Assembly: GCA_964016885.1 (NCBI GenBank)
Contig: OZ024752.1
Location: forward strand, 38,254,001-38,318,000
Direction: 5' to 3'
Source of the DNA: Eledone cirrhosa
Lineage: Eukaryota
DNA: 64,000 nucleotides
Shown: positions 42,102 through 43,270 of the stretch, piece by piece
Layout: each line of letters starts with the position of its first letter
Position numbering within the stretch: the first letter of the stretch is position 1
Translations under genes and position numbers: made by a program
Notes under the pieces: generated by a model
The model's input: the letters and a program-made list of their open reading frames with translations, nothing else
Databases searched by the model: none
What the model was told of the DNA's origin: nothing

Positions 42102-43270
42102 AAATTGGAATAAATGCTCTGAAATAGCGATATATATGTGAATATAGACATAGAATATTCGAAAATATTCTGTATGTTTATAATAAACATTTTGAAGACC
42201 TAATCGCTATAGAATAGAATACGTCACGTATTACAATTAGATTCTCGATAAAAGCAAGGGAAGTAAGTCTACGCGTTTCATTCTTGTTAGAATTCATCAG
42301 GACTACATATCCAGTGCTTTTATCGAGAATGACACAGCTAGAGACTTATAGAATACTTAGCTGTGTACAGGAACTGGTTTGAAAGAGCGGTTGCCGGTCC
42401 GGCAGAAATTAGAAATTGGAATAAATGCTCTGAAATAGCGATATATATGTGAATATAGACATAGAATATTCGAAAATATTCTGTATGTTTATAATAAACA
42501 TTTTGAAGACCTAATCGCTATAGAATAGAATACGTCACGTATTACAATTAGATTCTCGATAAAAGCAAGGGAAGTAAGTCTACGCGTTTCATTCTTGTTA
42601 GAATTCATCAGGACTACATATCCAGTGCTTTTATCGAGAATGACACAGCTAGAGACTTATAGAATACTTAGCTGTGTACAGGAACTGGTTTGAAAGAGCG
42701 GTTGCCGGTCCGGCAGAAATTAGAAATTGGAATAAATGCTCTGAAATAGCGATATATATGTGAATATAGACATAGAATATTCGAAAATATTCTGTATGTT
42801 TATAATAAACATTTTGAAGACCTAATCGCTATAGAATAGAATACGTCACGTATTACAATTAGATTCTCGATAAAAGCAAGGGAAGTAAGTCTACGCGTTT
42901 CATTCTTGTTAGAATTCATCAGGACTACATATCCAGTGCTTTTATCGAGAATGACACAGCTAGAGACTTATAGAATACTTAGCTGTGTACAGGAACTGGT
43001 TTGAAAGAGCGGTTGCCGGTCCGGCAGAAATTAGAAATTGGAATAAATGCTCTGAGTCTCTAGCTGTGTCATTCTCGATAAAAGCACTGGATATGTAGTC
43101 CTGATGAATTCTAACAAGAATGAAACGCGTAGACTTACTTCCCTTGCTTTTATCGAGAATCTAATTGTAATACGTGACGTATTCTATTCTATAGCGATTA
43201 GGTCTTCAAAATGTTTATTATAAACATACAGAATATTTTCGAATATTCTATGTCTATATTCACATATATA
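42102..43270 (-). mobile_element. Retrozyme-like array: 3 x 311-bp units plus an inverted partial copy, one HHR per unit
   Basis: Unit starts at 42102, 42413, 42724 and 43035. HHRs at 42263-42306, 42574-42617, 42885-42928 (-) and 43095-43138 (+): gtagtc-CTGATGA-attc..gaat-GAAA-cgcg-TA-gacttac. Confidence 0.85.

Follow-up and report, generated by a model that had tools for sequence, protein, structure and literature searches.

The locus at 42102–43271 of the window (the whole stretch of 64,000 nt analysed here) is one copy of a dispersed family that, judged by its layout in the sequence, is a metazoan non-LTR retrozyme and was very probably inserted by Penelope-type (PLE) machinery. Its arrays are built of two arms of tandem hammerhead-bearing units whose outer ends are fixed, and this layout is the PLE footprint of a 5′ inversion and a '30–40 bp tail'. 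In the main texts of published papers, the spread of retrozymes by PLE reverse transcription of a circle has so far been a proposal without direct evidence. The insertions described here carry PLE end marks, place two start sites with a precision of a few bases and reveal one template behind both arms, and an A>G footprint in their variants points to edited RNA. The window copy itself is one of more than a thousand, special only in being among the youngest.

The array in the window

Three letter-for-letter identical 311-bp units (42102–42412, 42413–42723 and 42724–43034), which the preliminary description had called apparently identical, are followed by an extension of the same period to 43055, giving 3.07 copies with 0 differences among units. 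There they meet an inverted arm (43055–43271) that matches the units at 217 of 217 nt, with A43055 as the single base common to both arms; unit number and junction layout are as assembled, and no piece bridges the junction at 43055 among the listed contigs of sequencing runs X1 and X2, a gap that carries no weight as evidence. Both ends of the block adjoin (TA)n. The last 9 nt of the inverted arm (ATATATAT-like) are indistinguishable from the flanking microsatellite, so the arm may end anywhere from 43262 to 43271. The features of the locus are listed below, with phase denoting the position counted from the predicted cut site.

41767–42101, no strand: left half of the (TA)n target microsatellite (TRF, period 2)
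42102–43055, minus strand (RNA sense): long-ended arm of 3.07 identical 311-bp units, outer end at phase 168
42102–42138, minus strand: PLE-type 'tail' of 37 nt, by which the long end (phase 168) lies beyond the short end (phase 131), from end-phase counts (PMC8557442, PMC11167929)
42241–42330, minus strand: hammerhead 1 (core 42263–42306) in its 16-bp helix, predicted cut at GUA between 42270 and 42269
42270–42580, minus strand: predicted 311-nt cut-to-cut monomer, from the spacing of predicted cut sites; the second is 42581–42891
42552–42641, minus strand: hammerhead 2 with its 16-bp helix, predicted cut between 42581 and 42580
42863–42952, minus strand: hammerhead 3 with its 16-bp helix, predicted cut between 42892 and 42891
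43055, no strand: 5′-to-5′ junction of the arms, joining phase 148 to phase 235 with an overlap of 1 base
43055–43271, plus strand: short-ended inverted arm of 0.7 unit, 100% identical, outer end at phase 131–140 (43262–43271)
43071–43160, plus strand: hammerhead 4 (core 43095–43138) with its 16-bp helix, predicted cut after 43131
43211–43259, plus strand: AT-rich hairpin in the predicted fold, phases 80–128, just before the short end
43263–43288, no strand: (TA)n, right half of the insertion target, from the sequence

With its long end on the left (168) and its short end on the right (131–140), the window copy obeys the end rule of the family. The inverted copy of about 215 bp that was first described as a tail is present, at 217 nt, but it is no stray piece: it is the second arm of a Penelope-type two-ended insertion and belongs to the insertion footprint of the family. 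The counterpart of a PLE tail is instead the 37-nt stretch at the left end, which would correspond to the spacing between two reverse-transcription start sites. The AT-rich hairpin is a candidate binding or start structure for the reverse transcriptase, by analogy with the stem-loop start site described in the main text of PMC11167929. No ORF lies within the unit or between the arms, so the locus lacks the RT plus GIY-YIG ORF by which an autonomous PLE is recognized.

Hammerhead cores of the form CUGAUGA...GAAA...UA lie on the minus strand at 42300, 42611 and 42922 and on the plus strand at 43101, the last being a fourth hammerhead, in the inverted arm, that the preliminary description did not contain. 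Each has the parts of a type I hammerhead, namely the CUGAUGA, GAAA and UA core, a 6-bp stem I with one bulge and a 5-bp stem II with loop AACA. A self-complementary ACGCGU replaces a stable stem III and would form 1–2 bp in the monomer and a 6-bp duplex between two motifs; the minus-strand hammerhead with a palindromic cgcg stem III first noted in each unit was therefore right in substance. Weak palindromic helices III are said in the main texts of PMC4209133 and PMC7229834 to act via dimers, and dimer cleavage would fit the class to which this motif belongs. The perfect 16-bp outer helix that had been noticed round each hammerhead is found in both the MFE and the centroid folds (z −5.5, with 0 of 200 shuffles as good), and the fold of the whole unit has a z of −4.5. 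Rfam gave no match at gathering score over the whole window.

A dispersed family with two arms and fixed ends

Exact-pattern searches of the 3.0-Gb assembly found 1,144 occurrences of a hammerhead 40-mer, 18,205 of a 24-mer that also covers sister subfamilies (reversed controls 0 for both) and 1,014 of the exact long end of the unit followed by ATATAT. We parsed 115 arrays comprising 1,163 units: the window array, 8 chosen by hammerhead and 106 chosen by the long-end pattern, all except the window array on contig C1. The main form of the family has a 310-bp unit, and the window copy is of the 311-bp subfamily, which carries the fewest mutations, with 0.08 scattered substitutions per kb in 9 arrays, themselves chosen by exact motif, against 0.43 per kb in 92 others. 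The earlier view that the array is young is thus upheld, by 0 differences at this locus and 3 scattered substitutions in the 37 kb of the nine 311-bp-subfamily arrays. The unit is covered by contigs of runs X1 and X2 to a summed depth of at least 1e5, with variants that match those of the assembly.

The assignment to retrozymes, which generally takes at least two consecutive complete hammerhead units, here has three consecutive 311-bp units that each hold CUGAUGA, GAAA, GUA and stems I and II. The unit G+C is 107 of 311 nt, below 50%. No ORF is tied to arrays in the loci scanned, none lies beside any inspected end of the parsed arrays, and PBS and PPT are absent as judged from the layout. The dispersed family coexists with autonomous PLEs, represented by two young RT families with open frames of about 777 and 900–905 aa. 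The label 'retrozyme-like' of the preliminary description is in these respects supported by the genomic evidence.

Two arms whose RNA-sense strands point outwards make up 110 of the 115 parsed arrays, the other 5 being single-armed, a proportion that over-counts the two-armed form because 106 of the 115 were chosen by the long-end pattern. Taken without selection, the first 31 Mb of C1 contains 17 arrays, of which 13 are two-armed and 4 single-armed, one of the latter at an N gap. Among the 108 complete two-armed arrays, read to both ends (2 others are cut off by the edge of the sequence examined), a long end at phase 166–173 is paired with a short end at phase 119–140 in 107; no long-long pair occurs and the sole exception has an N gap. 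The 216 outer ends include 95 at phase 166, 8 at 168, 51 at 131 and 31 at 140, where phase 140 is a phase-131 end blurred by ATAT. The two positions, 166 and 131, differ by 35 nt, and a PLE-type tail of 30–40 bp is accordingly present at one end only. (TA)n borders both ends in 96 of 98 complete arrays, most arrays having had one end selected for (TA)n, and as both flanks are (TA)n a target-site duplication (>4 bp) is unreadable.

Where the arms meet, their phases are unrelated: near-symmetric junctions (within 15 nt) number 11 of 107, with 10.7 expected. Inserted bases are present at 37 of the 107 junctions, and among the 70 without them at least 2 bases are shared in 39, against 18% for random joins. 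The long-ended arm is the longer in 56 of 107 arrays and the short-ended arm in 51, and the short-ended second arm reaches up to 29 units in other copies. At one array (L049:1165–1436), 272 nt of unrelated, GC-richer sequence are captured between the two arms.

Metazoan non-LTR retrozymes are known from coral, mussel and axolotl (Cervera and de la Pena 2020, PMC7229834; Li, Clavereau and Pollet 2026, 10.64898/2026.07.22.740005). As in the main-text accounts of these elements, the family has non-coding, low-GC tandem units of 150–450 bp with one type I hammerhead each; its weak palindromic helix III resembles that of axolotl HHR_Amex1, and the main 310-bp subfamily shares with HHR_Amex2 a U.U at the base of helix II. 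The same main texts describe direct tandem arrays, with target duplications when present, and contain no description of divergent multi-unit arms, fixed (TA)n ends, variants crossing the inversion or an A>G footprint. The circles and cutting of the published retrozymes are shown by experiment, whereas those proposed here are predictions from genome sequence. A literature search covering main texts, few of them subscription papers, found nothing on two-armed multimer retrozyme arrays, cephalopod retrozymes or editing scars in retrozyme insertions, and the word 'ribozyme' is absent from the Octopus vulgaris repeat paper.

Insertions of EN+ PLEs are described in main text as having an inverted 5′-truncated copy and a 30–40 bp tail at one end (PMC8557442, PMC3846280). 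For an anole PLE, the main text of PMC11167929 equates the tail with the distance between two internal reverse-transcription start sites, and reports that the protein, a predicted dimer, cuts and extends both strands of AT-rich DNA. The arrays resemble EN+ PLEs as presented in these sources (Craig et al. 2021; Arkhipova et al. 2013; Frangieh et al. 2024) in their head-to-head 5′ inversion, one-end tail, AT-rich or microsatellite targets, microhomology joins and starts about 100–170 nt downstream of the hammerhead. They differ in lacking an ORF and in having arms that each repeat a single short unit, as many as 29 and 45 times, with part of this length gained by later expansion. The MRC1-type elements of Chlamys (main text of PMC8557442) likewise depend on PLEs without being autonomous; they generate pLTRs and insert in multicopy head-to-tail form. 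Those elements resemble their autonomous partners at the 3′ end, a similarity not found here with the two autonomous families compared, and belong to a clade said there to be without canonical hammerheads, whereas here every unit has one.

Variants shared by both arms

Variants carried by at least 80% of the units of an array, hereafter array-wide, occur in both arms in 277 of 277 cases. The 101 arrays of at least three units contain 35 array-wide haplotypes, 25 of them seen once. Since a change fills the whole array and both arms, copying must pass through one unit. The rolling copying first proposed for the window array stands in so far as repeated copying of one RNA unit is supported; the identity of head-to-tail units, from which it had been argued, is insufficient as proof, because units can be duplicated later and two arrays were seemingly copied from a mixed multimer.

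A>G on the RNA strand accounts for 16 of the 29 array-wide substitutions that are independent, compared with 13 of the 139 that are scattered (Fisher p 1.6e-7); by distinct site the count is 8 of 21 (p 0.0016). This tally omits 14 author-chosen subfamily-marker calls, which include A>G at positions 296 and 2 as well as two T>C and two C>T. The 29 include 2 T>C. A>G sites 21, 260 and 277 recur on 4, 3 and 4 backgrounds, 7 of the 8 A>G sites are paired with a probability of at least 0.96 in predicted helices, and a 5′ U is present in 12 of the 16 events. Tolerance of G.U wobbles could contribute to the bias, but it would favour C>T too, of which there are 0 in the 29 and two among the omitted markers. 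A>G changes in double-stranded RNA regions are the trace left by A-to-I editing, and a single RNA template that was edited and then copied repeatedly would be expected to give array-wide variants rich in A>G.

The 11 invariant positions of the hammerhead core are spared by all 10 array-wide changed sites in the 44-nt motif (p 0.04), while 4 scattered changes do fall there; the pattern suggests that the ribozyme has been retained in the family. One array (L149) has an array-wide change at the predicted cut-site base, GUA to GUU, in all units of both arms.

Mosaic arrays are L094 + L140, L077 and L062. Both arms of L094 carry one haplotype in the first two full units and another further in, distinguished by three linked changes, and this type of switch has exactly two occurrences in the genome, one per L094 arm. 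L062 has one change mirrored in both arms. L077 is unmirrored, its long arm having A277 in the first four covered units and G thereafter, and its short arm G in every unit. Across 322 in-register units, mirroring affects 18 of the 108 scattered calls, all of them from these three arrays (L077 partly). Because the same unit changes in both arms, the mosaics of L094 and L062 count against a plain monomer circle; they would fit a mixed multimer template, a joint switch by a dimeric enzyme, or conversion between arms. Duplications of unit blocks after insertion are seen in L082 (period 27) and L048 (period 7), so very long arms are not pure cDNA lengths, and length and sameness arise partly at the DNA level.

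Template, enzyme and alternative origins

We consider it likely that the family is a non-LTR retrozyme for which a PLE enzyme primes from both sides of a (TA)n break and copies round a monomer circle. An arm would be transcribed, and adjacent hammerheads would cut as dimers to release 311-nt monomers, closed by a host ligase as in other retrozymes. The (TA)n target would be cut by a PLE protein, probably dimeric, which would then extend the 3′ end on each side of the break, starting about nt 166 and about nt 131 after the cut site, which are the end positions observed in the arrays. Each cDNA would then run for 0.2 to many rounds on a common template, evident in the shared variants and putatively a circle. 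Joining of the cDNA ends, observed at unrelated phases and often via 1–5 shared bases, would yield the two divergent arms, and long arrays may later grow by unit duplication, as observed in two of them. With the template, the two start positions, the target and candidate enzymes now named, this proposed copying step becomes testable in vitro, and it is relevant to how PLE inversions and tails form.

Parts of this scheme have precedents in published main texts. Retrozyme circles and PLE-driven tandem cDNA were proposed in PMC7229834, and mobilisation by PLEs was proposed there and in 10.64898/2026.07.22.740005 from co-occurrence and pLTR similarity, not from insertion footprints. Other published results count against it: Xenopus retrozyme dimers were uncut in vitro in 8 of 9 cases, according to the main text of 10.64898/2026.07.22.740005, and that of PMC11167929 reports hammerhead cutting to be unnecessary for insertion in one PLE tested in vitro.

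Candidate enzymes were sought among two autonomous RT families identified through ORFs that flank arrays (58 loci, with the two query loci excluded). Neither has terminal sequence in common with the unit, the best matches inside the elements being 17–22 nt with E 0.09 or weaker. One of them, a young family with an intact 905-aa RVT_1 and GIY-YIG frame and a minimal hammerhead, provides an in-genome control: it ends on (TA)n 119–122 or 163–164 nt after its cut site. Its 33 hammerhead matches at 29 loci comprise 10 long ends, 6 short ends, 7 other ends (4 at 119–120) and 10 that continue without (TA)n, and long and short ends are paired in three insertions (L197/L198, L206/L207 and L200). As it has the geometry in common with the unit and not the sequence, the 905-aa family is only a candidate partner. 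The 777-aa family has no hammerhead in the 400 nt downstream of its ORF. PLE fragments beside arrays L053 and L102, also considered as partners, are separate elements. Both young RT families (about 777 and 900–905 aa) have many near-identical open copies at L152–L211, often in divergent pairs.

If the template were an uncut linear multimer transcript, the same PLE two-ended insertion would apply and variants would become array-wide through unequal crossing-over of short insertions. In-register copying of a mixed multimer by both arms would account for the mirrored mosaics of L094 and L062; unit duplications do exist (L082, L048), arm lengths correlate (rho 0.32), and the main in vitro substrate of the anole PLE is unprocessed RNA in the main text of PMC11167929. 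We nonetheless regard this origin as unlikely. Mirroring is confined to 18 of 108 scattered calls, from three arrays of which L077 is only partly mirrored, 0 of 15 scattered inter-array variants repeat arm and unit number in the way of a source, bar chance-level matches, and a source array for the L094 mosaic is absent from the assembly. Were a linear multimer edited, A>G variants should moreover appear unit by unit, whereas they are array-wide.

It is improbable to a greater degree that the first arm alone was reverse transcribed and the second made from it at the DNA level, whether by strand invasion 35 nt within the first end or by self-priming from a fold-back. Such an origin would readily account for the shared variants and for both mirrored mosaics, and self-priming has been proposed for Penelope inversions with palindromic junctions (main text of PMC3846280). 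The junctions here are asymmetric, however, symmetry to within 15 nt being no commoner than expected (11 against 10.7 of 107); in 51 of the 107 arrays the short-ended arm exceeds the other in length, and L077 is unmirrored. Given such junctions, and with either arm able to be the longer, we reject fold-back self-priming as the explanation of the inversion in general. A simple satellite, or else an assembly artefact, produced by local tandem duplication and a chance inversion, would explain units that are 100% identical and a window junction known from the assembly alone, but is scarcely credible for a family with fixed long and short ends, (TA)n targets, differing junctions and array-specific haplotypes at more than 100 dispersed loci, and with a unit covered at a summed contig depth of at least 1e5 in runs X1 and X2.

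The two-ended copying of a monomer circle by a PLE enzyme, which we prefer, can be taken further, though only tentatively. A host-edited, ribozyme-cut circle might be read repeatedly by both subunits of a PLE dimer, one on each side of the (TA)n break, so that arrays would preserve traces of a joint move to another circle (L094) and of editing, or a change of template, part-way through synthesis (L077), and the circle might move between species. The unit is nearly unchanged in 17 further runs labelled as 17 other organisms, from 16 studies (X4–X20), which contain between 66 and 84% of its words; no RNA run is among the runs listed with the unit, a result that bears on its expression in neither direction. 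The two examined, X4 and X5, each have one 340-nt contig that wraps round the 310-bp unit, at depths of 26 and 34; position 288 is A in both, but T in about three quarters of the X1 and X2 depth. Sample leakage, related species or transfer could each account for the unit in such runs.

Other repeats were observed alongside the family. An older sister family with a unit of about 320 bp is present at 32427–32920 of the window and at L102:2300–3130, L084, L112 and L148; it is 69–78% alike round the two end sites, has the same two-armed layout on (TA)n, and has a hammerhead-like core with UUGAUAA instead of CUGAUGA, resembling the U3-A8 variant in the main text of PMC4209133. A second tandem array in the window (45101–46443; 468 bp × 2.9, 98%) contains minus-strand hammerhead-like motifs at 45443, 45911 and 46379. 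Short head-to-head pairs of hammerhead-like motifs lie between (TA)n blocks at 3460/3588, 21272/21423, 25267/25588, 47202/47366, 52771/52909 and 53294/53308, and are probably truncated PLE-type insertions of other families. A dispersed repeat of about 185 bp, SINE-like by its size and spread, has copies 84–98% alike at 9066–9248, 19522–19712, 40234–40421, 41299–41481, 50860–51051 and further places in the window.
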